64,000 nt of DNA, taken from the NCBI GenBank assembly GCA_050253075.1, contig JBFWJS010000001.1, forward strand, positions 576,001-640,000. Reading direction: 5' to 3'. Positions within the stretch are counted from its first letter, which is position 1. Each line of letters opens with the position of its first letter. The notes below the pieces were generated by a model. That model worked only from the letters and a program-made list of their open reading frames with translations, made no database searches and was not told where the DNA came from. This document shows positions 1,617 through 30,952 of this stretch, in pieces. Both the position numbers and the translations under genes were made by a program. This stretch comes from Deferribacterales bacterium (GTDB lineage: Bacteria; Chrysiogenota; Deferribacteres; Deferribacterales; Geovibrionaceae).

Positions 1617-3119
1617 ATGTCAGATAATACAATAGATAACATCTATGTCTCTTTCGATGTAGGTGAAGAGACATACGGGATAAGCATCGAGGATGTGCGT
1701 CAGATAATACGTGTGCCTAAGATAACCCGTGTGCCTAAAATGCCCGACTATGTGCTGGGGATGACAAACCTGCGGGGAGAAGTTCTGCCCCTGGTGGATC
1801 TGTCCATGCGCATGGGGTATGAGCACCCTTGTGAACACGGCGAAGACACCCGTGTCATCGTTGTGGATAAAAGAGGGATACTCACCGGGCTGATAGTGGA
1901 ATCCGTGAATGAAGTGAAGTCCACAGAACTGCACGACATAGATAAATTCCCCGAGATACTCAACGCCGGCGTTGATAAGAAGTTTATCTCGGGCATTCTG
2001 AAAGTGGCAGACGGCGGACATGTTGCCATCATTCAGATAATAAACACCGATGAGATAATCGACATCGAGGCTGCCAGCAAGCAGCTCGAAAAGAACGGTT
2101 CACTGGTAAAGAGAGAAAAGACGGCGGAAGAATCCCACGGCGGCGTGATAGACGAACAGCGCTTTATCAGCTTCAACATCACGTCTCAGGAATACGCCAT
2201 CGAGATACATAAGATAAACGAGATCATATGGATGCCTGAGGTGACAAGCGTTCCCGGACTTCCGAAATATGTTCTCGGCATCTTCTCCCTCAGGGGGCAG
2301 GTTATCCCGCTTTTGTCACTGCACGATAAATTCGGCATGAAGCTGAAGACCGACGCAGAGACCACCCGTGTGGTGATAGTGGATATCAGCAATGTGCTGG
2401 TAGCCTTTGCCGCCGACAGGGTGAACGCTGTGCTCAGTGTCGAAGACAGCCTGATAGAAGAACCGCCGAAGATATACGAAGACGACGATTCTGAAGTTTC
2501 TGCGGTGCTGAAGCTGGATAAAGGTAAAAGGCTCGTTATGGTGCTCGAACCGGAGCATCTGATAGACGACGCAGAGCTGGAAGCACTGAAACATGTGGCA
2601 GACCAGAGTACGGAGAGTGTAATGGGCGAACACGGCATGGATAATGCAGCAGAAGAAGAAAAACAGATAGTAACCTTTCAGATAGAGAACGAAAACTACG
2701 GTATCTATATCGAAAAGGTACAGGAAATAAACAGATATACAAATGTGACCAAAATACCTAAGACCCCGAAATTCGTCGAGGGCATCATAAACCTGCGTGG
2801 TGAAGTGATACCGCTCATCGACCTCCGCTCCAGATTCGAGCTGGAGAAGAAGGAGAGGGACGAATTCACCCGTGTGATCATAGTAAATCTTCAGAGCATG
2901 AAGGTCGGCTTTGTGGTGGACTGGGTGGACGAGGTTCTGCGCATCAGGGAAGACCAGATAGACAATGTGCCCCCTGTGTTAAGCGCAGCAGTGAATTCTG
3001 AGTTTATTGACGGTGTCGTTAATTTCGACAAAAACGGGAAGATGATACTTCTGCTTGATGTGGAAGAGCTCTTTTCCAAGGCGGAGATCAAAAAACTGGA
3101 GAATTTACAGGAAGGATGA
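1617..3119 (+). CDS. cheW: CheW protein with three tandem CheW domains
   Basis: Three repeats of VP..P.(Y/F)V.G..(N/S)LRG.V(I/L)PL. GGAGG RBS before ATG 1617. Confidence 0.92.
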   Translation: MSDNTIDNIYVSFDVGEETYGISIEDVRQIIRVPKITRVPKMPDYVLGMTNLRGEVLPLVDLSMRMGYEHPCEHGEDTRVIVVDKRGILTGLIVESVNEVKSTELHDIDKFPEILNAGVDKKFISGILKVADGGHVAIIQIINTDEIIDIEAASKQLEKNGSLVKREKTAEESHGGVIDEQRFISFNITSQEYAIEIHKINEIIWMPEVTSVPGLPKYVLGIFSLRGQVIPLLSLHDKFGMKLKTDAETTRVVIVDISNVLVAFAADRVNAVLSVEDSLIEEPPKIYEDDDSEVSAVLKLDKGKRLVMVLEPEHLIDDAELEALKHVADQSTESVMGEHGMDNAAEEEKQIVTFQIENENYGIYIEKVQEINRYTNVTKIPKTPKFVEGIINLRGEVIPLIDLRSRFELEKKERDEFTRVIIVNLQSMKVGFVVDWVDEVLRIREDQIDNVPPVLSAAVNSEFIDGVVNFDKNGKMILLLDVEELFSKAEIKKLENLQEG

Positions 3120-4186
3120 AAAAAGTAAGGGTTCTAATTGTCGACGACTCTGCGCTGATGCGTAAGAAGATCTCTGAGATGCTGGATACGGCTTTCGGCA
3201 TCGAGGTGATCGGCACTGCCAGAAACGGTGAGGACGGGATAAACAAAGCTATGGAGCTGAAGCCCGATGTCATCACTCTGGACGTGAACATGCCCGTTAT
3301 GGACGGGCTGACTGCTCTGCGCATCATCATCGAACGTGAGATATGCCCTGTTGTCATGCTCAGCTCTCTGACACAGGAGGGGACGAGTACTACATTCGAG
3401 GCGATGGAAGCAGGTGCTTTCGACTTTGTGGCGAAACCCAGCGGAACTGTCTCACGGGATATCGATATAGTTCGTAAAGAACTTGTGAGAAAAGTTAAAG
3501 CTGCTGCGGGCATGGGGCTCTCAAAGCTGACACGACACATCGAGGTAGAGGAACTGCCCGAGGGTGAGAGTGTCAACGAGATGGAGCTTAAACCTGTCGA
3601 TGCGGCAGATTTCCGAGCGGTGGCTATGGGTATATCAACAGGCGGTCCTAAGACCATCTTTGATGTCATACCCAGAATACCTGCGGATATAAACGCTGCG
3701 CTCTTCCTTGTACAGCATATGCCTGTGGGGTTTACCGAATCCTTCGCACAGAGGCTGAACAAGGCCTCAAGGATATTTGTGAAAGAGGCGGCAGCGGGCG
3801 ACATCGTGACACCCGGCGTCTGCTATGTGGGCAAGGCGGGGTATCACCTTACGATGTATAAAAAGCATAACGGAGTCACAACCCTGCGACTGGGCAAGAC
3901 TCCGGACCACGCATTCATCCCCAGTGCGGACATCATGATGGAGTCCGTCACAAAGGTCTTCGGCAGTAATACTCTCGGAGTGCTGATGACAGGGATGGGG
4001 GACGACGGTGCGAGGTCTATGTGCGGGATAAGAAAGGCGGGCGGATACACCATCGCCGAGTCTGAAGAGACAGCTATCGTTTACGGTATGCCGAGGGAAG
4101 CCGTGGAGAGAGGATGCGCAGACATCGTGCTCCCCAGCCATAAGATAGCCGCCGAGATAACCAGAAAGATAAGCAGAGGATGGTAA
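3116..4186 (+). CDS. cheB: Chemotaxis response regulator protein-glutamate methylesterase
   Basis: N-terminal REC domain, GISTGGP, QHMP and MTGMGDDGA motifs. Confidence 0.97.
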   Translation: MKKVRVLIVDDSALMRKKISEMLDTAFGIEVIGTARNGEDGINKAMELKPDVITLDVNMPVMDGLTALRIIIEREICPVVMLSSLTQEGTSTTFEAMEAGAFDFVAKPSGTVSRDIDIVRKELVRKVKAAAGMGLSKLTRHIEVEELPEGESVNEMELKPVDAADFRAVAMGISTGGPKTIFDVIPRIPADINAALFLVQHMPVGFTESFAQRLNKASRIFVKEAAAGDIVTPGVCYVGKAGYHLTMYKKHNGVTTLRLGKTPDHAFIPSADIMMESVTKVFGSNTLGVLMTGMGDDGARSMCGIRKAGGYTIAESEETAIVYGMPREAVERGCADIVLPSHKIAAEITRKISRGW

Positions 4187-10255: not shown

Positions 10256-10612
10256 TTATTCGAGTTCGTCCTTCAGTGACAACGCATAGGAACTTCTATT
10301 GATGATAGCACGGATATGACTCTCTGAAAGACCAAACTCCTTAGCCAGATCTCTTTGATTAGAACCCGTAAACTTTTTCATGATCTGCCTATCTCTCTCT
10401 GGTCTAAACATCTGCTTTGTAGAATGAATGTAAATGTTCATGCCGCCAGTCTGAGAACCGACAACGAGTACAGAACGGACTGCGATCCTTTCGGCTGAAG
10501 ACTCGGAAATGCCTTCTTTGCAGGCGGCCGAAAAAATCGCCTCCGCAACTATTCTGGAATCTCCGGAGAGATCGTCAAGTTTTACTATCTGATCTTCAGG
10601 CTGCCACTTCAT
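10256..10612 (-). CDS. mor: Mor/C-family transcription activator
   Basis: GGMNIYI...RDRQIMKKFTGSNQRDLAKEFGLSESHIRAII, typical of the Mor family. Confidence 0.88.
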   Translation of the reverse strand: MKWQPEDQIVKLDDLSGDSRIVAEAIFSAACKEGISESSAERIAVRSVLVVGSQTGGMNIYIHSTKQMFRPERDRQIMKKFTGSNQRDLAKEFGLSESHIRAIINRSSYALSLKDELE

Positions 10613-11385
10613 CAGTCTGACTCTCTCTGTAATTTGGCCGCAGTTTGGGCAACCTTTGCAAGCAGTACTGCAGAATGTGTTAAGCTGCCGTCAGGAGCAA
10701 TCAGCTTGTTGTGATTGAGATAAGCAAGCTCAGCTCGTGATACAAGTATCAGATTTTCAAGAGTGATGTTCTGTTTGTCTCCATCAGCAAATATGATTGC
10801 ATGGCCTTCGGGTATTTCGCCGTGCGCATTTTCCCATATCATACGGTGCTTATATTTCCATACATTAGGTTCGCTGATTTTAACTTTAAGATAGCCGTCT
10901 CTGTCAGTAATTTCTGTGCCGACCTCGACAGCATTTTTAGGACGGTTCCCTTTTTTGAATGATGTGCGATTAGCACCCATAAAACCTTTCTTGCCTTTAT
11001 CCCAGGGGATGTGTCCTTTTTTAAAACGAGTGTTACGGCCATTACATAGATGATTCACTGAACATATCCGTTTGATAGAGTCACGGCCGTGATCAGTCTT
11101 GAAGTGCTCATTAAACAATAATGTTAGTTCAGCAATACTACGACCAGTGATATTCTCTTTAAGGAAGTCTATATGCACAGCAAAAAACTTTTGATTAGGT
11201 GACTGCCCTCTGCGGTGTCCACGAGGGCAGTCATTTGTGAGTTCATGCCTTTTGCATGTACTCCTAATCTGGTCTACAGACAAGGCAAGCCCAAACTCAG
11301 AGTTAAATAACTCTGTCAGATCCTTATAGCTTATACCTTTGATATTCTGCTTTAAGAATGTAATATGAAAATTCATATACCTCAT
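10612..11385 (-). CDS. HNH-endonuclease-like protein (HNH_3 type) with repeated N-terminal helical domain
   Basis: KHRMIWENAHGEIPEGHAIIFADGDKQNITLENLILV and FKKGH.PW.KG motifs. Confidence 0.8.
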   Translation of the reverse strand: MRYMNFHITFLKQNIKGISYKDLTELFNSEFGLALSVDQIRSTCKRHELTNDCPRGHRRGQSPNQKFFAVHIDFLKENITGRSIAELTLLFNEHFKTDHGRDSIKRICSVNHLCNGRNTRFKKGHIPWDKGKKGFMGANRTSFKKGNRPKNAVEVGTEITDRDGYLKVKISEPNVWKYKHRMIWENAHGEIPEGHAIIFADGDKQNITLENLILVSRAELAYLNHNKLIAPDGSLTHSAVLLAKVAQTAAKLQRESD

Positions 11386-13701: not shown

Positions 13702-14892
13702 CTATGCCTTGAAGATAACGTCTGCGGTTACAAGCTCTTCGCCTATATTCGCTGCGAAGTTCATAGCCTTTGCCACAAGGTTATTAATAGTTAGAGGGTA
13801 TGTGTGATACTCAACGTCACCGAGCTTACCTCTTGATTTCAGCTTTCTATAGATAGCTTCATAGGCATCTTTGGCAAAGATAGTGGAGATGTTCTTACAG
13901 CCTACTCTGTTGAACTTGTGGATAAGATACTTCTCCACTTCTTCCTGTGTCATGCCTGTGATCTGAGCTTTATCCATACGGCGTGTAAGCTCTCTGAGGT
14001 CGTGTCGTTTATCTGATAGAGTGGTCTCCAGCTCTGGCTGCCCAAAGAAGACAACACCGCAAAGAGACTGAAAACCGTTCTTTAGCTCTGCGATCCTCTT
14101 CACAGACTTGAGAGCTTTGATGTTTAGCAGTTCTGCATCTTCGATGAATAAGACTTGCTGATATCCGGTTTCGCACCTGTTAGTAAGCAGCTGGATAGCC
14201 TGTCTGGATTTCTGCTCTCTTCGGATCTTCGGCTTTTCCTCCGGAGCTATGTCCATGATGATAGCATCCAGAAGAGACTCCGGTGTGATGCTGGACTTGT
14301 CCAGTATCTGAGGGAAGATCACCTTTATACCTTCGTCCTCCAGCTGCTCTGCTGCTGCCATGCGGATAGCGGATTTACCACAGCCGACTTCGCCATAGAC
14401 AGCGAACATGCCTTTATGATGTGCGGTTGAAAGGATCATCTCTTTTACGAATAGGTGATCCTCTGAATAGTAGATATCATCGACACTGTTTATGTCGCCT
14501 ACGAATGGATTTTTAAACAGCTTGAAATACTTCATTGTTCTCATGTTTATCATCTCTGCCTCCTCTGGCTCTGCTTCAAACTCTGCTGCTTTTTTCAGCT
14601 GAAATGGTTTCTTCCTCTCTTGTCCTGCTATGCGTCCTCTGCCGATCTTTCCGCTTTCCTCGTCATCCAGCCAGAGGTCTGCCATCGTGTACTCGTTTGT
14701 ATCCATCCACTCTGTGAGCTTTGGGTATACTTCAAAAGCCTTTGCTATTTTTTCGTCAAACTGCTCTCTCTTCGCAGGGAAGACTCCCTTCACAGCGAGA
14801 GATAAGGCCGCTGGGCTGAAGCCTGCTGTCTTTGATAACTGTGCCTGGCTGATACCGTTCTCACGAAGACATCGTTTCAGTAGTGCCTGCAT
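13702..14892 (-). CDS. Transposition AAA ATPase (ExeA-like, MuB counterpart) with N-terminal HTH
   Basis: Walker A GEVGCGKS, Walker B LFIEDAE, FFGQPEL. Follows the transposase. Confidence 0.88.
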   Translation of the reverse strand: MQALLKRCLRENGISQAQLSKTAGFSPAALSLAVKGVFPAKREQFDEKIAKAFEVYPKLTEWMDTNEYTMADLWLDDEESGKIGRGRIAGQERKKPFQLKKAAEFEAEPEEAEMINMRTMKYFKLFKNPFVGDINSVDDIYYSEDHLFVKEMILSTAHHKGMFAVYGEVGCGKSAIRMAAAEQLEDEGIKVIFPQILDKSSITPESLLDAIIMDIAPEEKPKIRREQKSRQAIQLLTNRCETGYQQVLFIEDAELLNIKALKSVKRIAELKNGFQSLCGVVFFGQPELETTLSDKRHDLRELTRRMDKAQITGMTQEEVEKYLIHKFNRVGCKNISTIFAKDAYEAIYRKLKSRGKLGDVEYHTYPLTINNLVAKAMNFAANIGEELVTADVIFKA

Positions 14893-16534
14893 CTGTGTCT
14901 CCTCCTTCTGTTATTTCCCACACGATCTTCTCAGCTTCCTTCAGTGATACTGACGATCCATACTTGTCACGCAGTTCCTGATTCATACCCTTTGGTATAC
15001 TGCCGAGCTTTTTAGATATCCTGTCGAGTACATCAATTATGGGGATGCGCTTATCCTCCAGTGTCTCTATCTTTGCGAGCTCGTGTGCTGTGCCGTGTTT
15101 TGAAATGTATTCGGGAACATCTTCTGATCTGTTGCCCATGACTGTGAGACTGCCACCGAAAGGCAGGTCTCCTTTTTTTCTATTGTCTCCGTATGCGAGG
15201 TTTTCTGATATTGCTTCCTGCTTTTGCAGGTCTGACTCTGGCAGTGCTTTGTACTCCTGCCCGATGATCGGTGCATCCTCTCTGAACCCTGCTTCGTTCT
15301 TTGCTATTGGTTCGACAATGTATTCCTGATCGTTGAACACCACGCCGATCTTCGGCCAGTCGAATACACGCAGGACAACCTGTACCTTGCTCTTGCGTGG
15401 AATGATGCCTGGTATCATGCGCAGGTCGTAGTCCAGAGTGCGGAACGGGATAGCATAGTGAGCGTCAACTGTCCTAGGTACTTCCGGCTCACGAAAGAGA
15501 TCCTGAAGCAGCTTCCTCTCCGGAAGGTTGATAAGCTGCTCTGGCTTGATTGTCATCCAGAGTGAGTTTCTGCTCTGCTTTGTTCTGCGGTGTATGCGTT
15601 CTGAGTTTATGGAAATACACCAGTCTGTGACCCATGTGTTGATATCTTCCAGAGAGTGAGCCGGCTGCAGACGGAGCCCTGATTCGAAACTGCCTTCGAC
15701 AAAATTATGCATACGTTCCACAGCACCCTGTATCTGTGACTGGTACGGCGTTGACTTTGGAGTTTCGACATTCAGCCTCTTCAGCCAGCCCATGATAGTC
15801 TTGCTCATGTTCGCAGAGCCGTGGTCTCTCAGGAGCTGGGCAGGTACACCTCTGAATGGCAGCTTGCCGCTCTTTTCTTCCCATGCGGAGATGAGGAAGT
15901 CGAAAAGGTCTGCCTGTGTCTCACCGCTGCTGTAGTAATACTTTACGTAGATAGCCCCGCTGTAGTGGTCTACCAGGACATAGCGCAGCAGACGCTGCTT
16001 TATCTGTTTGAAGTTTTCGATCTTGTTTTTATATAAAGACTTCTCGTCTCTCAGTCCGATCTGTCCGTCTTTCAGGTAATACTGGATACAGACCGAGGAA
16101 TCCACAACATGAACGTGGTTCGGGTGCAGGCTTCTCATCTGGACTGCCGGCTTTGCTGTTCCCATTGTCTTTTTGTCCATTTGTCTGTCCTTTAGGATGC
16201 GGTTCAGAGTGCTTACGCTTACGCTTCCTTTTTCTATTACGCCGTTGTTTTCGGCTATGCGCAGAGCCTCATTCATGGGCATGTGTGCGCCTTTGTTCTC
16301 TCTGGATGTTGTCATCAGCAGAGAGTGCAGGAACTGTATCTGATGCTTATTCATAGTACACTTGCCTGCGTCTGTTCTCTTTTGTCTGCCGCTGGAGAAG
16401 CCGTTTGCACGGGCTCTGCGGTAGAGCGTTGATTCGCACAGACCCGTTGTTTTCTGATACGCTTTGATTATCTCTCTTCGGGCAGAGGGGGTATCAGCTT
16501 TTTGCAGTTTCTCTGCCAGTTCCCTTTCCCACAT
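14861..16534 (-). CDS. DDE transposase (B3-type MuA counterpart)
   Basis: RSLHPNHVHVVDSS, LVDHYSG, RDHGSAN, GAVERMHNFVE catalytic motifs. Confidence 0.9.
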   Translation of the reverse strand: MWERELAEKLQKADTPSARREIIKAYQKTTGLCESTLYRRARANGFSSGRQKRTDAGKCTMNKHQIQFLHSLLMTTSRENKGAHMPMNEALRIAENNGVIEKGSVSVSTLNRILKDRQMDKKTMGTAKPAVQMRSLHPNHVHVVDSSVCIQYYLKDGQIGLRDEKSLYKNKIENFKQIKQRLLRYVLVDHYSGAIYVKYYYSSGETQADLFDFLISAWEEKSGKLPFRGVPAQLLRDHGSANMSKTIMGWLKRLNVETPKSTPYQSQIQGAVERMHNFVEGSFESGLRLQPAHSLEDINTWVTDWCISINSERIHRRTKQSRNSLWMTIKPEQLINLPERKLLQDLFREPEVPRTVDAHYAIPFRTLDYDLRMIPGIIPRKSKVQVVLRVFDWPKIGVVFNDQEYIVEPIAKNEAGFREDAPIIGQEYKALPESDLQKQEAISENLAYGDNRKKGDLPFGGSLTVMGNRSEDVPEYISKHGTAHELAKIETLEDKRIPIIDVLDRISKKLGSIPKGMNQELRDKYGSSVSLKEAEKIVWEITEGGDTDAGTTETMSS

Positions 16535-20359: not shown

Positions 20360-20785
20360 ATGTTTGGAGCACAACTGAAAAAGATAAGAAAAGAGTTAGA
20401 GCTTTCACAAACTCAATTTGGTGAACGACTTGGAAAAGGTTTGGCAACAATACAAAGATGGGAAGCACTAGAGGAACCGCCAAAGGATTCTATAATAAAT
20501 CTCATATGTAGTGTTTTTGGTATTAGTGAAACATGGTTGAAAACAGGCACAGGTAACATGTATGGCTCATATTCAAATAACCAAAGCATACAAAAGAATT
20601 ACGGAATACAGATACAAAATAATGGTAACATAACCCATTTTGGAACGCCTACAAACCCTATGACAGAGGGCGTTGAGAAAGACGTTAAGGAACTGTTTGA
20701 AATGATTTTAGAATATGGTACCCCAAAAATCATCAAACAGTTTAAGTCAAAAATGGAAGCTATTAAAAAACTTCATGAGGAGTAG
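20360..20785 (+). CDS. XRE-family prophage repressor
   Basis: LKKIRKELELSQTQFGERLG...WLKTGTGNM HTH. No S24 peptidase domain evident. Confidence 0.85.
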   Translation: MFGAQLKKIRKELELSQTQFGERLGKGLATIQRWEALEEPPKDSIINLICSVFGISETWLKTGTGNMYGSYSNNQSIQKNYGIQIQNNGNITHFGTPTNPMTEGVEKDVKELFEMILEYGTPKIIKQFKSKMEAIKKLHEE

Positions 20786-23723: not shown

Positions 23724-24240
23724 GCATAGCAAACGCCGCAGCAGCATAGAGAGCGAGCTGCCCGAAAACATCCGCAAGGAACTGCGGCGCCGACTGGTGG
23801 AAGATAACGAGACCTATGACGATATCACCGCATGGCTGAACGCTGAAGGGTATGACATAAGCCGCTCTGCTGTGGGACGATACGGTAAAACCTTCTTTGA
23901 CATTGTTAAAGATATGAAGGTGATAGAAGAGCAGTCCGCAACGCTGGTGGGTGATGAGGCAAGCAGCATGGTTCTGGAGGAAGCAACGACTAAGCTGATC
24001 CTGAACAAGCTGATGCAGATGCTGATGACAGATGATGTGGATCTGAAGAAAAGCACAAGGATCATGACCGACCTGGCGAACCTGCAGAAGTCGAACGTGA
24101 GCAGGGAAAAGCTGAAGATAGAGATCAGAGACAGAGCGAAGGCTGTCGCTGAAAAAGTGGCAGGAATAGCTAAGAAGAAAGGTCTGACACCGGACACAGT
24201 TGCGAGGATCAAGAAAGAGATCCTGGGCATTAGTAAATAA
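23710..24240 (+). CDS. Mu gp27/DUF3486-like putative small terminase
   Basis: RRSSIESELP...GYDISRSAVGRYG motif. Confidence 0.85.
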   Translation: MNLGEHSKRRSSIESELPENIRKELRRRLVEDNETYDDITAWLNAEGYDISRSAVGRYGKTFFDIVKDMKVIEEQSATLVGDEASSMVLEEATTKLILNKLMQMLMTDDVDLKKSTRIMTDLANLQKSNVSREKLKIEIRDRAKAVAEKVAGIAKKKGLTPDTVARIKKEILGISK

Positions 24241-24253
24241 CACAGGGAAATCC

Positions 24254-25771
24254 ATGAAAGCAGTTATGGCTGAAAGCACTGACAAACACATAAAGCCGAT
24301 ACAGACAGTTACCGCAAGTAACGGTGATGATATCCGCATCCTTCTGAAATATCAGGCTGACTGGTGTGCTGATCTGGCTGATGTGAAGTTTCTGGAAAAG
24401 TCCAGACGTATCGGCGGGACATTCGGAGAGATACTGGATGACTGTCTGACTGCTGCCGGAGAGATCGGAGACGATATCTGGTACATCGGATACAACAAAG
24501 AGATGGCGCAAGAGTTCATACGTGCGGCAGCTGAGTTTGTCCGTGTGCTGCACAATGAGCTGGTTGATATAGATGAAGAGATAATAGAAGACGAAAACAA
24601 AGATATCCTGACCTATGTGATCAAGCTGGCTAGTGGACACAGAGTGTCTGCTCTGTCCTCTGCTCCGTCTAACCTGAGAGGTAAGCAAGGGATCATCGTA
24701 ATAGATGAAGCTGCTTTCCATGAAGACCTCGAAGAGGTGCTGAAGGCTGCCCTGGCTATGCTGATCTGGGGCGGAAAGGTCAGAGTCATCAGCACCCATA
24801 ACGGTATAGACAACACCTTTGCAATATACATCAAAGATATCAAAGAAGGCAGGCTGCCATATAGCCTGCACACAGTAACATTCAGAGATGCTATCGCTGA
24901 TGGGCTCTATAAACGTATCTGTCTGGTGAGCGGAAAGGAATACTCACCGGAAGCGGAAGATGCGTTTGTAGAATCTATCTATCAACAATACGGCGAAGCG
25001 GCGGATGAAGAGCTGGACTGTATACCTAAGAAGTCCGGCAAGAGCTACTTCAACAGTGCTGTTGTGGAAAACAACCTGGATAAGGGCATCCCTTATCTGG
25101 AATTTGGGAAGCCTGACGAATGGAAGCTGCTTGACCCTGATGTCCGCAGAGCTGAGATCACTGAGTGGTGTGAGGAAAATCTGACTCCGCTGCTGGAGAT
25201 GTACGACAAGGAGACAGTGTGGTTCGGAGAGGACTTCGCACGTAATGGTGATGCAACTATCTTTGACCCTTGCTTCGATGATGGAGACAACTTTACAAGC
25301 ATGTTCCTGCTGGAGCTTCGCAATATCCCGTTCGCAGATCAGGAGACATTTCTCTTCTTTATCCTTGACCGTGTAAACCTCGGCGGGGCTGCACTGGACG
25401 CTACAGGTAACGGTGCCCAGATAGCAGAGAACACTGCACTGCGCTATGGAGTAGACCGTGTGCATGAGATCAAGCTGAATCAAAAGTGGTATCAGGAAAA
25501 TGTGCCACGCTATAAGACACGCCTGGAAGACGGCACTATACGCATGGCTGACAATCAGGCTGTGCGTGATGACCACAGGGTGTGGGTGTCGGCGAATGGT
25601 GTGCCGACTATCGGTAAGAGAATCAACTCAAAAGGTAAGAAACACCACGGCGATATCGTCATAGCAAAGGTTATGGCTGTGTATGCCAGAAACAATATAG
25701 AGGTGCTGGAGACAGAAGTGATGTCTGCAGCAAAGAGAGAAGGATACAGGGAGGCCGCCTATTATGGCTGA
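24254..25771 (+). CDS. Terminase large subunit (Mu gp28-like)
   Basis: EKSRRIGGT, NLRGKQG, IDEAAFH, ISTHNG, GEDFAR.GD, HGD motifs. Confidence 0.93.
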   Translation: MKAVMAESTDKHIKPIQTVTASNGDDIRILLKYQADWCADLADVKFLEKSRRIGGTFGEILDDCLTAAGEIGDDIWYIGYNKEMAQEFIRAAAEFVRVLHNELVDIDEEIIEDENKDILTYVIKLASGHRVSALSSAPSNLRGKQGIIVIDEAAFHEDLEEVLKAALAMLIWGGKVRVISTHNGIDNTFAIYIKDIKEGRLPYSLHTVTFRDAIADGLYKRICLVSGKEYSPEAEDAFVESIYQQYGEAADEELDCIPKKSGKSYFNSAVVENNLDKGIPYLEFGKPDEWKLLDPDVRRAEITEWCEENLTPLLEMYDKETVWFGEDFARNGDATIFDPCFDDGDNFTSMFLLELRNIPFADQETFLFFILDRVNLGGAALDATGNGAQIAENTALRYGVDRVHEIKLNQKWYQENVPRYKTRLEDGTIRMADNQAVRDDHRVWVSANGVPTIGKRINSKGKKHHGDIVIAKVMAVYARNNIEVLETEVMSAAKREGYREAAYYG

Positions 25772-27275
25772 TGGAATATATACGGCAGATGGCAGATGGA
25801 TGGACTTTAGCGACAGTTCGCAGATGCTGGACGAGGTGGCGACAAGGGCAACCAGAGGTGAGGTATTTAACTGGCTGGGAACTCTGGCAGATCCTGATCC
25901 TATCCTGCGTAAGCTGTTTCAGGGGGATGAGGTATTCGATGACCTGATGAGCGATGACGAGGTCATAACAGCCACCCAGGGGCGCAAGCTCGGATCGCTG
26001 GGTATGGAGTATGAGTTTCGTGCTGGAGCATTAAAAGATGAGGAAGCAACAGATGAAGCCAATAGGACTTACACAATGCTGGCTCAGGATCTGGAGAATA
26101 TAGATATATACAACCTGATAGCTCAGATGCTGGATACGCCTTTTTACGGTTTTGTACCTGTGGAGCTGCTCTGGAAGATGGAGAATGGATACTGGAGGCT
26201 GAAGGATCTGTGTCCACGGCCGACCAGCTGGTTTGCTTTCGATGATAAGAATCAGCCCCGATTCATGACTCTGGACAGCGGCATGAACGGTAAGCCGCTG
26301 CCAAAAAATAAGTTCGTCCTTGTGAGACATTTCCCGACATATAAGAACCCATACGGACTGCGCCTGCTATCAAGATGTTTCTGGCCTGTTGCGCTGAAGC
26401 GTGGCGGGCGAAAATTCTGGGGGATATTCGCAGAGCGTTTCGGTATGCCCTGGGTGATCGGCAAATATGCCAAAGGCACACAATACGCTGATAAGCGTGA
26501 GATGCTGTCTAACCTGACAAACATGGTGCAGGACGCAGTGGCTATCATCCCGCAGGGTGGCGGAGTGGAGCTCCTGAGTAATAACGGATCTGGCGGTCAG
26601 GTACACCAGAAGCTGATAGAGCACATGGACGCTGCCATTAGTAAAGTGCTGCAAGGGCAGACTCTGACCAGCTCAGTATCAAAAGATGGTGCTGCATACT
26701 CTGCAGGCAAGGTGCACGCATCAACACTGGCATCTTATCAGGCCGCAGACCGAAAGCTGGTAAAGGCAGCGATGGAAGAGATAGCCTGGATATACACCAA
26801 GGTAAATGCAGCTGCTGGCGTGATCAGTCCTAGCTTCCACTGGCCTGAAGATGAGGCTGAAGAGCAGGAAGATACAGCAGGCAGAGATACACGACTTACA
26901 CAGCAGGGTGTCAGGTTCACTAAGAAGTATTACATGAAACAATACAACCTGGAAGAAGACGACCTGGATGTTGATACCGGTTCTGACAGAGGGAGTGACG
27001 GGCTTATGTTTGCTGACAGTAAGAATAAAAAGTTTACACCGGAGCAACAGGCAATAGAAGACCTGGTGACTGAAGCTGTGGGTAAAGCATCTATGAAAAA
27101 CATAGAGCAGGCAGTGCGTAAAGCAGTAGATGAAAGCTCAGACTATGAGGAGCTGATGGAACGCCTGGCTGCACTTTTACCTGATTTGAATAATGAGGAC
27201 ATGCAGGATGTTCTGGAGAGAGCTGCTGTTATCTCTGCAGGATATGGCACCACTATAGAAGACGAACGGGAATAA
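25764..27275 (+). CDS. Portal protein (Mu gp29/DUF935-like)
   Basis: NPYGLRLL, FAERFGMP, ISKVLQGQTLT motifs. Confidence 0.92.
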   Translation: MADGIYTADGRWMDFSDSSQMLDEVATRATRGEVFNWLGTLADPDPILRKLFQGDEVFDDLMSDDEVITATQGRKLGSLGMEYEFRAGALKDEEATDEANRTYTMLAQDLENIDIYNLIAQMLDTPFYGFVPVELLWKMENGYWRLKDLCPRPTSWFAFDDKNQPRFMTLDSGMNGKPLPKNKFVLVRHFPTYKNPYGLRLLSRCFWPVALKRGGRKFWGIFAERFGMPWVIGKYAKGTQYADKREMLSNLTNMVQDAVAIIPQGGGVELLSNNGSGGQVHQKLIEHMDAAISKVLQGQTLTSSVSKDGAAYSAGKVHASTLASYQAADRKLVKAAMEEIAWIYTKVNAAAGVISPSFHWPEDEAEEQEDTAGRDTRLTQQGVRFTKKYYMKQYNLEEDDLDVDTGSDRGSDGLMFADSKNKKFTPEQQAIEDLVTEAVGKASMKNIEQAVRKAVDESSDYEELMERLAALLPDLNNEDMQDVLERAAVISAGYGTTIEDERE

Positions 27276-27387
27276 GGCGTTTTAACGCATTAAATATATG
27301 AAACAGCCGAATGTGCGTATTTAGCACAAACGGCCGGATAAGGGCATTTATAAACGTTTTTAAACGCATATATAAGCGAGGTTTCGA

Positions 27388-28635
27388 GTGAGCAGTATTG
27401 AGCTGATGGAATTAAAAGAAGCTGTTGAGTTCTGGGGAGGTAAAACGCCCCTGCCTGTGGATGAGTTTAAGGCTCTGACAGAGGTGGAGAGGCAGCGTGC
27501 TTTTACTGTGTCTGGTATATCCAGCCAGGATGCCCTGGCATCTATCTATCAGCAGATAGGTAGTGCTGTGAAAGACGGCCTCAGCTATGAAGATTTTAAA
27601 AACAGTGATGTATGGGAAAAGACAGGCTTTCAGGATAAGGGCTACAGGATAGACAATATCTTCCGCACTAACATGCAGAGTTCGCTGATGGCTGGCAGAT
27701 ATGCAAGCCTGCGTAAGTCGAAGCTGAAGGAATACTGGATGTATTCTGCTGTGAATGATAGCAGGACACGCCCCGCTCATACTGCACTGCACGGCAAAGT
27801 GTATCACAGAGACCATGCCTTTTGGATCACATGGTTTCCCGTTAACGGGTATCGCTGCCGCTGTGGAGTGCGTGCGTATTCTGCTGCTCAGGTGAAACGC
27901 ATGGAGCTGCATGTTGAACAGGATGATCTGACAGGTCAGGTGATAGATGTTGTGCATCCGGAGACCGGAGAAGTTTCAAAAGTGAAGCTGATACCTGATG
28001 CCGGCTTTGCAGGAAATCCTGCTGAAGGACTTGCACAGCTTTCACCAAGTGAAGCCACAGATATAAAAGACCTGACAGACAGAGCCAGATGCAGAAAAGA
28101 CTTTGCAGATGACTGCCGTATACCGTTGAAAGACATAGACCCGAAATACATCATAGATGTGAAAGACACAGACATAATGCCAAAGGGGCTGAAGCCTGAA
28201 GAGTATGCCGAGGCATTCCTGAATGAGTTTAACCTGAAGATGGAAGGGAGCGCAGTGATAACTGTACCAGGGATGAGGCTACCCTTTGTGATCAGTAAGA
28301 CGCTGTTTATAGATAAGCAGACAGGGCTGTGGAAGATAGAGAAGTCCGGCCGTGAGCAGTATATGAAACCTCTGGCCTGGACAATCCAGAATCCTTTTGA
28401 GGTTTGGTCTGTACCTGCGGAGGTTGCAAACAAACCTATGGCTGTGGCACGGCTGTTGAAGCTCTTTAAAACTTCGGCAGGACAGATCGGCGGCTTTGGT
28501 GTGTTTAACCTGGCAGGCAGCAGATATCTGCCGGCGACAGTCTTTGCACCGAATGCAGAGAAAGGCAGTGTTGAAAAAGTGCTGAAGTATCTGGAAAAGC
28601 AGAGAGTCGGAGTTTTGTCCTATAGGCAAAAGTAA
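27388..28635 (+). CDS. MuF head morphogenesis protein with C-terminal PBECR-like nuclease extension
   Basis: AFTVSG, IFRTNMQS, YSAVNDSRTRP.H, PVNGYRCRC (MuF). C-terminal REQYMKPLAWTIQNPFEVW...YLEKQRVG.L.Y resembles PBECR2. Confidence 0.85.
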   Translation: MSSIELMELKEAVEFWGGKTPLPVDEFKALTEVERQRAFTVSGISSQDALASIYQQIGSAVKDGLSYEDFKNSDVWEKTGFQDKGYRIDNIFRTNMQSSLMAGRYASLRKSKLKEYWMYSAVNDSRTRPAHTALHGKVYHRDHAFWITWFPVNGYRCRCGVRAYSAAQVKRMELHVEQDDLTGQVIDVVHPETGEVSKVKLIPDAGFAGNPAEGLAQLSPSEATDIKDLTDRARCRKDFADDCRIPLKDIDPKYIIDVKDTDIMPKGLKPEEYAEAFLNEFNLKMEGSAVITVPGMRLPFVISKTLFIDKQTGLWKIEKSGREQYMKPLAWTIQNPFEVWSVPAEVANKPMAVARLLKLFKTSAGQIGGFGVFNLAGSRYLPATVFAPNAEKGSVEKVLKYLEKQRVGVLSYRQK

Positions 28636-28714
28636 ACCCGATGTGATCCAGCCATCGGGAGGCAACACCCTTGCTGATTGCCGCCACTGGTCTGACGGTC
28701 AGGGTACGCTACCT
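28629..28714 (-). ncRNA. Putative ~86-nt structured small RNA convergent with muF
   Basis: Own promoter, long 5' stem-loop (28714-28660), terminator hairpin CCCGAUG-N9-CAUCGGG plus UUUACUUUU. Confidence 0.75.
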
Positions 28715-28720
28715 GATTTA

Positions 28721-28749
28721 AATATAGTTGAAAGACTTTGAGAGGTCAA
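28721..28749 (-). promoter_or_regulatory. Sigma70-type promoter for the small RNA
   Basis: TTGACC (28749-28744)-N17-TATATT (28726-28721). Predicted +1 A at 28714. Confidence 0.75.
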
Positions 28750-28754
28750 GAGAT

Positions 28755-29609
28755 ATGAAGATAGAGGTTTTTAGAACCGGACAACACAGAGATGCAGGGG
28801 GGCAGGAGTACGAAGCTACGCCGGAAAAACTGCATCAGATAGCAAATGACTATAATGTGTCTGACCATGATGCCCCTGTGGTCATAGGGCATCCGGCGGA
28901 TAATGCCCCGGCATACGGCTGGGTAAAGGCGCTATCTGTGGCGGGTGACAGACTGATGGCAGAACTGCGGGACATCCAGCCGGAGTTTAAAGACTGGGTG
29001 AACCGCAGTCTGTTTAAGAAACGCAGTATAAGCCTTTACCCCTCTGGACTGCTCCGACATGTGGGCTTTCTGGGGGCACTGCCTCCGGCGGTGAAAGGCT
29101 TGAAAGATTTTGAATTTAAGTCCGGTGAGGGCTTTGAACAATACGAGTATGAAGACATACAAGACCAAAAGGAGGTCGATATGACACTTGAAGAGCTGCA
29201 AGCGCAGCTGAAGGTAATGCAGGATCGTCTCAGTGTTCTTGAGACGGAGAAGAAACAGGAAACAGAGCGTGCTGATAAAGCGGAAGCCGATCTTGAAAAA
29301 GTGAACACAGAGTTCTCTGATGCTCAGGCAAAACAGGCTAAGGCTGAGCTGACACAGTTCGTTGATCAGCTGGTAGCGGATGAAAAGCTGCTCGGTAAAG
29401 ATAAGGCTAATGTGCTGGCATTCGCTGAAGGACTCGCTGCAGGCGGTAAGGTTATCAACTTCAGCGATAAAGAGGAAACTCCTCTGGCTGCTTTCAAGGC
29501 TCTGATGAGCGGTATGCCTAAGCTGACTGATCTGTCGCATGACTTTTCAGACAGTAACCCTGGCAGACAGACCGAGCAGACAGAAACAATCAAAAACGGG
29601 CAGGTGTAA
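28755..29609 (+). CDS. Mu gpI-like prohead protease with C-terminal scaffold
   Basis: IEVFRTG, APVVIGHP..NAPAYGWV, LRHVGFLGA.PPAVKGL. Internal GGAGG + ATG at 29181. Confidence 0.88.
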   Translation: MKIEVFRTGQHRDAGGQEYEATPEKLHQIANDYNVSDHDAPVVIGHPADNAPAYGWVKALSVAGDRLMAELRDIQPEFKDWVNRSLFKKRSISLYPSGLLRHVGFLGALPPAVKGLKDFEFKSGEGFEQYEYEDIQDQKEVDMTLEELQAQLKVMQDRLSVLETEKKQETERADKAEADLEKVNTEFSDAQAKQAKAELTQFVDQLVADEKLLGKDKANVLAFAEGLAAGGKVINFSDKEETPLAAFKALMSGMPKLTDLSHDFSDSNPGRQTEQTETIKNGQV

Positions 29610-29612
29610 AAG

Positions 29613-29969
29613 ATGGATAATATACTGAAATCTATCACAGTCTCAGACAAAAAGATCCTTGATGATATTCATCCTCCCGTCGTGATGACAAGAGGACTCG
29701 CTGACCACGCTGAGGATATCCCTGCGGGGACTATAGTGGCTGTAAATGGTACGGGCACCACTATAGTGTATGACCCAGACGGCACTGCGCCGACGAATGT
29801 ACCGACAGGAGTTCTGCTCCGTGATGCGGCAGTAGATGCAGATGTGGCAGACATCCTGGTACATGGGTGTGTTTTTGCTGATGTGCTCCTCGTAGAAGGA
29901 TCAGCGGCTGACTCTGCAGCACTCATTGCGCTGGAAACAAACACTCAAATCTTTGTAACTAGGAGATAG
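29613..29969 (+). CDS. Head decoration protein (lambda gpD-like)
   Basis: IPAGTIVA...PTGVLL...ILVHG motif, directly upstream of the capsid gene. Confidence 0.7.
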   Translation: MDNILKSITVSDKKILDDIHPPVVMTRGLADHAEDIPAGTIVAVNGTGTTIVYDPDGTAPTNVPTGVLLRDAAVDADVADILVHGCVFADVLLVEGSAADSAALIALETNTQIFVTRR

Positions 29970-29974
29970 AAAAG

Positions 29975-30952
29975 ATGAATATAGACCTTCGTCAGATATT
30001 TTCAAAAGCGGCGTTTATCAGATCATTGAATCTGCTTTCGCCTATCAGCTCTGTAGCTGTGGATAACATCTACAAGAACGTGCAGAACATCGCAAACCCT
30101 GTGATCCCTCTGGCTGATCTGTTTACTCAGATCAAGACTGTGGGACTCAGTACCCGTGGCGGTAAATACATCGACCTTTCCGGTTCGACAGAACTGGGTG
30201 CGAAGTGGGTGGAACCGTTCCCCATTAAGCTGAAGGAATCGCTCAATGGTGTTGAACTGAACAACCTGAAGATGCTTTCTGAAACAAGCATCGAAGCATG
30301 GAGACAGCAGAAGATCAACAAGGTACGCCAGACAAACCGTGCGACAACAGAGTATCAGGCTGTAAAAGCTCTGTCTGGAAAGATAGAGATGCCTGTCATC
30401 ACAGATGACGGATCTTCGGCTACGTATACCGTAGACTACGGCACACCAGCAACACTGACACCGGCAAAAGCCTTTAACGCTGTGGATGCGTCAGTAGAAA
30501 CAGTAGAAAAGTTTCTGTTAGACATGGCTGCAAAGGTTATCGAATCAGGCTACTCTGAAGTGGAGTTCTGGGCTGGTAAGGATGTCTGGTTTGCTATCTA
30601 TGCTCTCATCCAGGCAGTGCCAAACGACACACGTATCAGTGCAAAAGTCGAAGGACAGACGATCATCACTGCTGCAGGTAAAGTGAAGCTCCGCAATGAG
30701 CTGGTATATAACCCTACATCGAAGGCCTTTGAGCCGACAGTAGCAGCGAATAAGATCATGTGTATTGCGATGAACGCACCGCATACACTCGCTTATGCTG
30801 CGATAGACGACCTCGACGGAAACCTTGAAGCAGTACCGCTCTTTATGAAACCGATCAAAGACCCTGAAGGCGGCTGGAAGATACTTACTGAGTCTAAGCC
30901 TCTGCCGGCTCCGGTGATCAGAGCTATCTGCTGGGCAACAGCTATATCGTAA
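29975..30952 (+). CDS. Major capsid protein (lambda gpE-like family)
   Basis: 325 aa, TTEYQAVKALSGKI, VDYG, C-terminal ESKPLP.P motif. Confidence 0.82.
   Translation: MNIDLRQIFSKAAFIRSLNLLSPISSVAVDNIYKNVQNIANPVIPLADLFTQIKTVGLSTRGGKYIDLSGSTELGAKWVEPFPIKLKESLNGVELNNLKMLSETSIEAWRQQKINKVRQTNRATTEYQAVKALSGKIEMPVITDDGSSATYTVDYGTPATLTPAKAFNAVDASVETVEKFLLDMAAKVIESGYSEVEFWAGKDVWFAIYALIQAVPNDTRISAKVEGQTIITAAGKVKLRNELVYNPTSKAFEPTVAANKIMCIAMNAPHTLAYAAIDDLDGNLEAVPLFMKPIKDPEGGWKILTESKPLPAPVIRAICWATAIS

Follow-up and report, generated by a model that had tools for sequence, protein, structure and literature searches.

What fills the 119 nucleotides (nt) that separate two head genes of a Mu-like prophage, and does it serve the predicted ribonuclease (RNase) domain encoded just upstream? 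The window analysed here, a 64,000-nt stretch of a Deferribacterales genome (GenBank assembly GCA_050253075.1, contig JBFWJS010000001.1, positions 576,001 to 640,000 of the forward strand), carries a Mu-like transposable prophage in which muF, the gene for a minor head protein ending in a PBECR2 domain, is followed by a gap (28636-28754) between its stop codon and the ATG of the head protease gene. An initial annotation, made from the letters of the window alone, had placed in this gap a minus-strand small RNA standing where MuF toxins usually have an immunity gene. Comparison across related loci supports well the conclusion that the gap encodes a member of a new RNA family, here called family A, whose gene has a sigma-70-type promoter of its own, a hairpin of three stems and a terminator that acts in one direction. 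Reading from sequence, we favour, at a probability of roughly 40%, the proposal that this RNA is expressed in lysogens and neutralises the PBECR2 RNase.

A small-RNA gene in the muF-protease gap

The gap is non-coding and holds no conserved open reading frame (ORF): the only frames touching it are one of 32 amino acids (aa) on the plus strand (28643-28741) and the start of one of 60 aa on the minus strand (28505-28687), neither of which matches a PHROG family and both of which are disrupted by 1-3-nt insertions or deletions relative to the closest relative, a homologous gap in another Deferribacterales genome (locus L002) whose MuF is 71% identical. The minus strand carries the following features.

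28744-28749, minus strand: -35 hexamer TTGACC, 5 nt upstream of the protease start codon (which lies on the other strand); identical in L002
28721-28726, minus strand: -10 hexamer TATATT, after a 17-nt spacer, ending 7 nt before the first base of stem P1
28628-28714, minus strand: predicted small RNA of family A, ~87 nt, both ends placed from the promoter and the terminator
28660-28714, minus strand: conserved hairpin with stems P1, P2 and P3, defined by covariation; covariance model 63.1 bits, E = 5e-17
28628-28659, minus strand: intrinsic terminator in this direction only, CCCGAUG/CAUCGGG with a 9-nt loop, then UUUACUUUU, which overlaps the muF stop codon

Stem P1 pairs AGGUAGC (28714-28708) with GUUGCCU (28666-28660), P2 pairs ACCCU (28705-28701) with AGGGU (28671-28667), and P3, capped by the loop GACCAG, pairs CCGUCA (28698-28693) with UGGCGG (28686-28681). 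The hairpin also has an asymmetric internal loop whose sequence is conserved, CUGA.. on the 5' side and ..A.CAAGG on the 3' side; the latter resembles a universally conserved 3'-end stretch of 16S rRNA, a likeness that a rough estimate puts at the level of chance. The terminator was found by a custom script, since the general signal scan limited loops to 8 nt and this loop has 9. Tandem Repeats Finder returned no rows in 28400-29000, and a 161-nt stretch around the gap is single-copy in the source genome (3.04 Mb in 17 contigs).

Signals drawn from this single sequence are only mildly unusual, and it is the comparison across loci that lifts the RNA above chance. The promoter (TTGACC-N17-TATATT, 28749..28721) scores 10/12 matches and is weak taken alone, 5 kb containing 8 promoter-like sites versus 5.1 ± 2.5 expected. 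The minus strand folds at -34.4 kcal/mol (z = -2.0; 7/200 shuffles as good) and the plus strand at -29.7 kcal/mol (z = -0.9); the minimum-free-energy fold of the minus strand differs from the conserved fold, part of which appears in the centroid.

A further observation concerns the -35 hexamer. Upstream of the start codon of the gene behind the gap, and downstream of its ribosome-binding site, stands the motif GTCAA(G/C) (window 28744-28754), which many loci repeat at the matching place irrespective of whether a protease or a Mu G-like protein is encoded there. Since this motif is the complement of the antisense -35, one set of bases serves both signals.

Conservation of structure, promoter and terminator

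A protein-guided collection supplied 160 further loci, and among the short-gap MuF-PBECR2 loci the family-A element was visible down to ~40% protein identity. In L002 the outer stem has three one-sided changes that preserve pairing only on the minus strand, and the terminator stem is wholly replaced by a different self-complementary sequence followed by a minus-strand T-run (UUUUUUAUUU). The consensus fold of 11 sequences has 17 pairs, with 97.3% of cells paired and 8/17 pairs changed on both sides; none of 500 shuffles was as good, slid controls reached 39-52%, and RNAalifold independently recovered the same fold. An alignment of 19 sequences, which was fitted to the covariance model and so favours the structure, gave 96.8% of cells paired and 11/17 compensatory pairs, and added covariation in the otherwise invariant P2 (ACCCU/AGGGU versus UCCAU/AUGGA).

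Transcription signals recur with the fold. A promoter with at least 9/12 matches lies upstream on the RNA strand in 12/20 family-A loci, compared with 0/20 on the opposite strand and 2.9% of shuffles; a TTGAC-type -35 is present in 12/20, and a minus-strand terminator (hairpin plus T-run) follows in 9/20. Thus the structure and the convergent promoter and terminator that the initial annotation had drawn for one sequence recur beside homologues, the gap has proved as free of credible ORFs as it had supposed, and its coordinates for the promoter, stems and terminator were reproduced.

The same comparison bears on whether there is an RNA gene at all. The hairpin might instead function in the DNA, or in the late mRNA of the plus strand, where it could for instance affect processing or stability; the region does lie within a transcribed operon, and the plus strand can form a weaker mirror fold. 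Family A, however, has 31 G-U cells versus 3 A-C cells, so its fold works on the minus strand only, as had been claimed from the G-U pairs of the window, and the ratio is 34:3 in the 3' hairpin of family B, a second RNA of the same slot described below. The plus strand would carry these pairs as A-C mismatches. With promoters confined to the minus strand (12/20 vs 0/20) and T-runs following the terminator stems on that strand only, we regard a hairpin without an RNA gene as extremely improbable.

Family A appears to be a new RNA family. A search of Rfam (4227 covariance models) with window positions 27000-30000 at E <= 10 returned only three unrelated small nucleolar RNA rows with E > 4, and 16 related loci gave no match at E <= 0.1. 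A literature search, not extending to the supplements of PMC5576092 and PMC5512222, met no description of a MuF-PBECR2 gene paired with an antisense RNA, in keeping with the initial annotation.

The MuF protein and its PBECR2 domain

The gene that precedes the RNA was characterised by domain searches, which bore out the earlier impression that its C-terminus resembles PBECR2.

27388-28635, plus strand: muF, 415 aa, minor head protein, stop codon TAA at 28633-28635
28213-28626, plus strand: PBECR2 domain (PF18810), predicted BECR-fold RNase, residues 276-413 of MuF

The Phage_Mu_F domain (PF04233) covers residues 53-161 (E = 1.5e-17, 64.8 bits versus a curated cut-off of 29.6), and the PBECR2 match (E = 6e-16, 59.2 bits versus 27.1) spans the whole model, positions 1-120 of 120; the protein also belongs to phrog_220, "minor head protein and DNA pilot". 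Among 482 MuF relatives at E <= 1e-10, the best 120 all had both Pfam domains and were 314-460 aa long. PBECR2 on MuF is the common ancestral architecture of this phage group and not an occasional add-on.

According to Iyer et al. 2017 (PMC5512222), PBECR domains are predicted to be metal-independent RNases, with an active site made up of His, or Arg in one family, plus Thr/Ser. In the window protein KSGRE aligns with KxGHG of relatives, placing Arg for His, and a conserved Thr is present in ATVF; going by our own alignment, these residues may correspond to the active-site positions of PMC5512222.

Distribution of the RNA and its association with MuF-PBECR2

Model R1, built for family A, gave 20 strong matches in the window and 166 loci, all on the strand opposite muF and all in full MuF-PBECR2 loci; weak rows were L246 (E = 0.025), a second place in L236 (0.21) and L254 (0.62). 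Family A occurred once each in 2/68 genomes of the window's phylum, both times beside MuF-PBECR2. PF18810 was present in 15/401 genomes sampled from a second phylum, of which 160 were searched under strict filters with model R2; it matched in 2/15 PBECR2-positive and 0/145 PBECR2-negative genomes. A pattern scan of viral contigs that started from the RNA yielded 27 matches. Twenty-two were confirmed, all convergent with MuF-PBECR2 (18 of them no more than 150 nt away, the other 4 at a distance of ~440 nt), four were unconfirmed by the model (one, when inspected, lay inside an ORF) and one was weak and without a MuF match. Scanning viral contigs for exact 14-15-mers taken from two conserved stretches produced chance matches only, and a DNA search of phage records produced none.

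Loci without a family-A match mostly showed other conserved elements directly after the muF stop codon. At least two RNA families fill this slot behind muF-PBECR2, and probably more. Families A and B together were found in 44/63 distinct MuF-PBECR2 loci (18 + 26) versus 0/64 MuF loci without PBECR2, in line with the initial placement of an RNA in the immunity slot; the remaining 19 comprised 11 with family C by eye, 3 with family E, 3 others and 2 without an RNA. A strict scan for antisense promoters within 250 nt of the muF stop codon was positive in 26/63 PBECR2 loci and 3/64 loci without PBECR2, compared with 0/63 and 1/64, respectively, on the plus strand. The gene following the RNA varied (phrog_976 protease, Mu-like_Pro protease or Mu G-like gene) while muF-PBECR2 preceded it; because the downstream gene is variable, the link of the RNA is to muF and not to the next gene.

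Other RNA families and their relationship to the domain

Family B matched model R3 in 35 places among 188 sources, all opposite muF and at the stop codon of muF-PBECR2. Its 3' hairpin is 94.3% paired with 7/8 compensatory pairs, two mutually complementary loops have 80.5% of cells paired with 3/7 pairs changed on both sides, and its 5' stem aligns poorly (54% paired). Families C, D and E were defined by sequence similarity judged by eye, and an RNAalifold attempt on family C returned only a 3-base-pair hairpin.

By sequence comparison, the RNA family follows PBECR2 more closely than it follows the MuF domain. Among pairs of loci matched for N-domain identity, those sharing an RNA family had the higher C-domain identity, 51.1% versus 34.3% where the N-domains were 40-50% identical and 62.2% versus 43.2% where they were 70-80% identical, the pairs counted not being independent of one another. 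On quick trees of 63 rows, from which family D rows had been dropped for short matches, the RNA family changed 11 times when mapped to the C-domain and 16 times when mapped to the N-domain. Family A goes with the Arg-type motif (KSGRE) and family B with the His-type motif (KxGHG). Loci L253 and L237 are 89% identical in the N-domain and 64% in the C-domain and have different RNAs, which looks like a cassette swap of domain plus RNA.

Several loci show other arrangements in and around the slot. Tandem elements follow muF in L236 (~3240-3402) and L247 (~3290-3447), a family-C-like element and then a family-A RNA. The antisense unit can also carry a protein-coding moron, as L342 shows: encoded in the same direction as the family-A RNA, and situated between its terminator and the muF stop codon, is a 98-aa ORF (2115-2411, plus strand) whose product has a domain related to lambda Ea8.5 (PF20735, E = 1.4e-18). 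L343, L348 and L353 have the same arrangement. In L161 (3284-4230), and likewise in L291, ~950 nt separate muF from the family-A RNA and contain two ORFs, one of 84 aa on the plus strand and one of 168 aa in the direction of the RNA, without significant Pfam matches. The last dozen bases before the L161 RNA match the 3' end of a different muF, that of L273, which suggests that the RNA module moved by recombination. In genome G084 (C1, ~1107931-1108069; L354 2532-2670) a large CRISPR array, whose 29-nt repeat recurs every 61 nt in at least 50 copies, has a 139-nt insert in place of one spacer; the insert is homologous over ~120 nt to the module of muF 3' end, family-B RNA and antisense promoter in L266.

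These arrangements bear on the view that the RNA is an accessory ("moron") product of the lysogen with no tie to PBECR2, such as an anti-defence RNA or a regulator of host genes lodged in a permissive slot of the head module. Mu-like Pseudomonas phages carry an anti-CRISPR operon between homologues of Mu G and the protease gene, presumably the same slot as that of the window RNA, and in other Mu-like phages this slot holds anti-defence genes. Anti-CRISPR loci and RNA anti-CRISPRs have their own promoter and varied content, features that the window slot shares along with its place in the head module. The host-type promoter and terminator, the presence of several unrelated RNA families in one slot, the protein-coding morons within the antisense unit (the Ea8.5-like ORF of L342 and three others, and the 168-aa ORF of L161 and L291), the RNA-plus-promoter module common to phages with different muF genes (L161 and L273) and the complete family-B module serving as a CRISPR "spacer" in a genome without PBECR2 all fit such a role. 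Yet no match was found among the 64 MuF loci without PBECR2 despite similar gaps, the RNA family tracks the PBECR2 domain, and the RNA is not similar to the CRISPR repeats tested. From the anti-CRISPR loci the window RNA differs also in lying on the opposite strand. We consider an accessory role of this kind rather unlikely, though a close rival. Mimicry of CRISPR repeats, tried as a specific form of it, was unsupported both for the window RNA against the array of its own genome (p = 0.43, 0.86) and for the family-B copy against the flanking G084 repeats (p = 0.36, 0.75). The own-genome array (G000, contig C17, ~1790-2482, a 36-nt repeat in at least 10 copies on a short contig) was the only one found by a k-mer script, and the 17-contig assembly may lack others.

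Proposed function of the RNA and the antisense alternative

How might such an RNA act? We propose that its promoter, being independent of the phage late activator, would have the RNA made both in the lysogen and during lytic growth, and that the folded RNA would bind the PBECR2 domain directly, as inhibitor or decoy substrate. It would thereby neutralise the virion-borne PBECR2 RNase in place of the small immunity protein of other MuF toxins and shield the producing cell, as well as lysogens into which sibling phage particles deliver the protein. The conservation of the loop and P2 sequences across phyla, together with covarying stems, suggests recognition by a factor, and a further point in favour is that the RNA family follows the domain. 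The backwards orientation would let a constitutive promoter inside the late operon fire without switching on the downstream head genes, and the RNA's terminator, acting on the opposite strand, would leave late transcription unstopped; the antisense orientation can thus be explained by operon architecture alone. It is possible, though doubtful, that such structured small RNAs form a new class of RNA antidotes, namely cognate immunity factors of virion-delivered BECR-fold RNase domains that are expressed backwards from within the late operon, protect the lysogen and codiversify with the toxin as an exchangeable cassette, in the manner of the protein immunity genes of polymorphic toxin systems.

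The same orientation is also what a cis-antisense regulator would show. The late head genes are most likely transcribed as one long mRNA, the signal scan having found no plus-strand promoter or terminator in the gap, so that late transcription should cross the complement of the RNA. The initial annotation had thought antisense silencing of muF unlikely because the RNA overlaps only a few bases of muF; this does not hold if the late mRNA is a single transcript, since the RNA is then fully complementary to ~87 nt of it, and antisense action stays a live rival. Pairing with the perfect complement between muF and the protease gene would lead to duplex cleavage or transcription interference; in lysogens this would keep leaky expression of muF-PBECR2 silent, or else it would fix the proportion of MuF to the head proteins encoded downstream. 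Lambda OOP RNA and the type I pairs with 3'-end overlap (txpA/RatA, bsrG/SR4, fst/RNAII) are precedents, sharing with the window a short, structured, constitutive RNA that converges on the 3' end of a gene with its terminator beside the stop codon. The window RNA differs from them in overlapping the coding sequence by a few bases only, in having a 415-aa structural protein as its partner and not a small membrane peptide or regulator, and in the conservation of its loop sequences across phyla.

Convergent orientation was observed in all 20 strong R1 matches, all 35 R3 matches and 22/22 confirmed RNA-first matches, the terminator abuts or overlaps the muF stop codon, and antisense regulators are typically rich in stem-loops; if the RNA kept a toxic late gene silent in the lysogen, both the PBECR2 link and the absence of the RNA from Mu would be accounted for. 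Complementarity, however, requires no set sequence, yet the internal loop and P2 are near-invariant in both phyla, whereas identity in the PBECR2 domain has fallen to 39-57%, which points to some other recognition factor. Moreover, many G-U pairs in the stems weaken the mirror structure in the mRNA, and the RNA is retained where 440-950 nt of other genes intervene before muF. Antisense action in trans on the translation starts of muF and the protease gene was rejected, as the duplex energies were ordinary (z from -1.4 to +4.2 at 13 loci) and showed no special complementarity. On this evidence we judge cis-antisense regulation to be unlikely, though a contender to be reckoned with.

Points weighing against neutralisation of PBECR2 by the RNA

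Several observations count against the proposal that the RNA neutralises PBECR2. The invariably antisense orientation fits an antisense mechanism equally. Locus L172 corresponds to L275 minus ~57 nt, the family-B RNA having been deleted between CCTTGC repeats with PBECR2 unchanged, and in L153 there is no gap, the muF stop codon abutting the start of the next gene, again with PBECR2 unchanged. Both domains are apparently intact, with His and Thr present, and an intact PBECR2 kept without the RNA argues against an essential antidote. One Ralstonia phage record has an Arg-type domain, a gap of only ~55 nt and no visible promoter. In L161 and L291, and in L342, L343, L348 and L353, the RNA stands ~440-950 nt from muF with other genes between, and G084 carries its family-B copy without a PBECR2 match in the genome.

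Other limits, in addition to the non-independence of the identity pairs, apply to the association with PBECR2. Gaps of at least 90 nt occur in 47/60 MuF-PBECR2 loci and in 35/61 MuF loci without PBECR2, so that length discriminates poorly; physical linkage of the RNA to the C-domain could by recombination alone make the RNA track the domain; and the PBECR2 association is confounded by descent, the PBECR2-less MuF loci coming from other phage lineages. As for the protein itself, toxicity of the window PBECR2 is an assumption within the antidote proposal. The AlphaFold model of MuF residues 254-415 has a mean pLDDT (predicted local distance difference test) of 88.4; Foldseek found no match to it in the PDB at E <= 0.001, and VIA-align wide gave weak fold matches (best Z 3.3), colicin E5 and colicin D appearing at Z 3.0-3.1 among many unrelated rows. 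The structure search on this model left the BECR fold neither confirmed nor ruled out.

The two loci without an RNA also speak to a different proposal, in which the RNA is a ligand of the MuF C-terminal domain that serves portal assembly as a cofactor or is packed and injected with the DNA as cargo or guide. The phi29 packaging RNA is a loose parallel for an assembly cofactor. The RNA gene is located within the head-assembly module, and the complementary loops of family B could join within or between molecules. Iyer et al. 2017 (PMC5512222), in the sections covered, predict the C-terminal domain of MuF to be RNA-binding. An RNA used for assembly only would nevertheless be expected under late control and on the late strand, and L172 and L153 manage without it; we therefore hold this proposal to be highly improbable.

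Other phages provide natural contrasts. Phage Mu has no slot, its genes F and G overlapping, and gp30 shows a weak MuF_C match and no PBECR2 match; its C-terminal PBECR domain is described as catalytically inactive in a section of Iyer et al. 2017 (PMC5512222). Rhizobium phage RR1-B, which has PBECR2 (E = 3e-30), has a 103-nt gap with a minus-strand terminator and TTGGAC-N18-TATATT, as read by eye. A separate observation comes from L318, where a stand-alone PBECR2 gene of 121 aa overlaps the 71-aa DUF2283 ORF that comes after it (490-1055), DUF2283 being referred to as a predicted antitoxin in the relevant part of PMC12521503. The arrangement looks like a type II toxin-antitoxin pair, and PBECR2 can accordingly sit in a toxin-antitoxin-like pair.

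Relationship to known systems

In type III systems such as ToxIN, the antitoxin RNA consists of tandem repeats and lies upstream of the toxin gene on the same strand. The initial annotation had likened the window pair to such systems, and what is shared is an RNA proposed to neutralise an endoribonuclease protein directly; the anatomy, however, differs, the window RNA having no tandem repeats, lying downstream on the opposite strand and having its own promoter, and the toxin fold is different, the "toxin" being a domain of a virion protein.

MuF polymorphic toxins, as described by Jamet et al. 2017 (PMC5576092), have a C-terminal toxin domain and a small immunity ORF (<150 aa) downstream. They have in common with the window locus a MuF head protein of a temperate phage with a C-terminal domain of toxin-type fold, a partner directly downstream, and the apparent exchange of domain and partner together. 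The window partner is instead a non-coding RNA, encoded on the opposite strand behind a promoter of its own, and PBECR2 is here the ancestral architecture. The proteins of Iyer et al. 2017 (PMC5512222) are the same as that of the window, MuF fused to a PBECR-type predicted RNase, and an Arg-for-His variant is described there; the sections of that paper covered here mention no RNA or immunity partner.

The RNA bears on what the RNase-like domain of MuF-PBECR2, a very common Mu-like head protein, does and how phages tolerate it, and a conserved partner RNA provides a testable handle on the isolated PBECR2 domain. Were the antidote proposal true, RNA-based immunity would no longer be confined to type III systems but would include proteins that enter the cell along with phage DNA; otherwise, family A is still a widespread, undescribed phage small-RNA family with strong covariation.

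Prophage setting

The prophage has an early region on the minus strand, a repressor-like gene, and a late region on the plus strand in which the order is endolysin, large terminase, Mu-type portal, muF, head protease, decoration protein and major capsid protein, muF directly following the portal gene in the head module.

10256-10612, minus strand: Mor/C-type late activator, early region
13702-14892, minus strand: DNA transposition protein B, early region
14861-16534, minus strand: transposase A, early region
20360-20785, plus strand: repressor-like gene
24200-25771, plus strand: large terminase
25764-27275, plus strand: Mu-type portal (Portal_Mu)
28755-29609, plus strand: head maturation protease/scaffold gene, the next late gene after muF, ATG at 28755 (phrog_976, E = 3.8e-64)

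An HNH endonuclease gene (10612-11385, minus strand; phrog_1891, E = 1.8e-76) adjoins the late activator in the early region.

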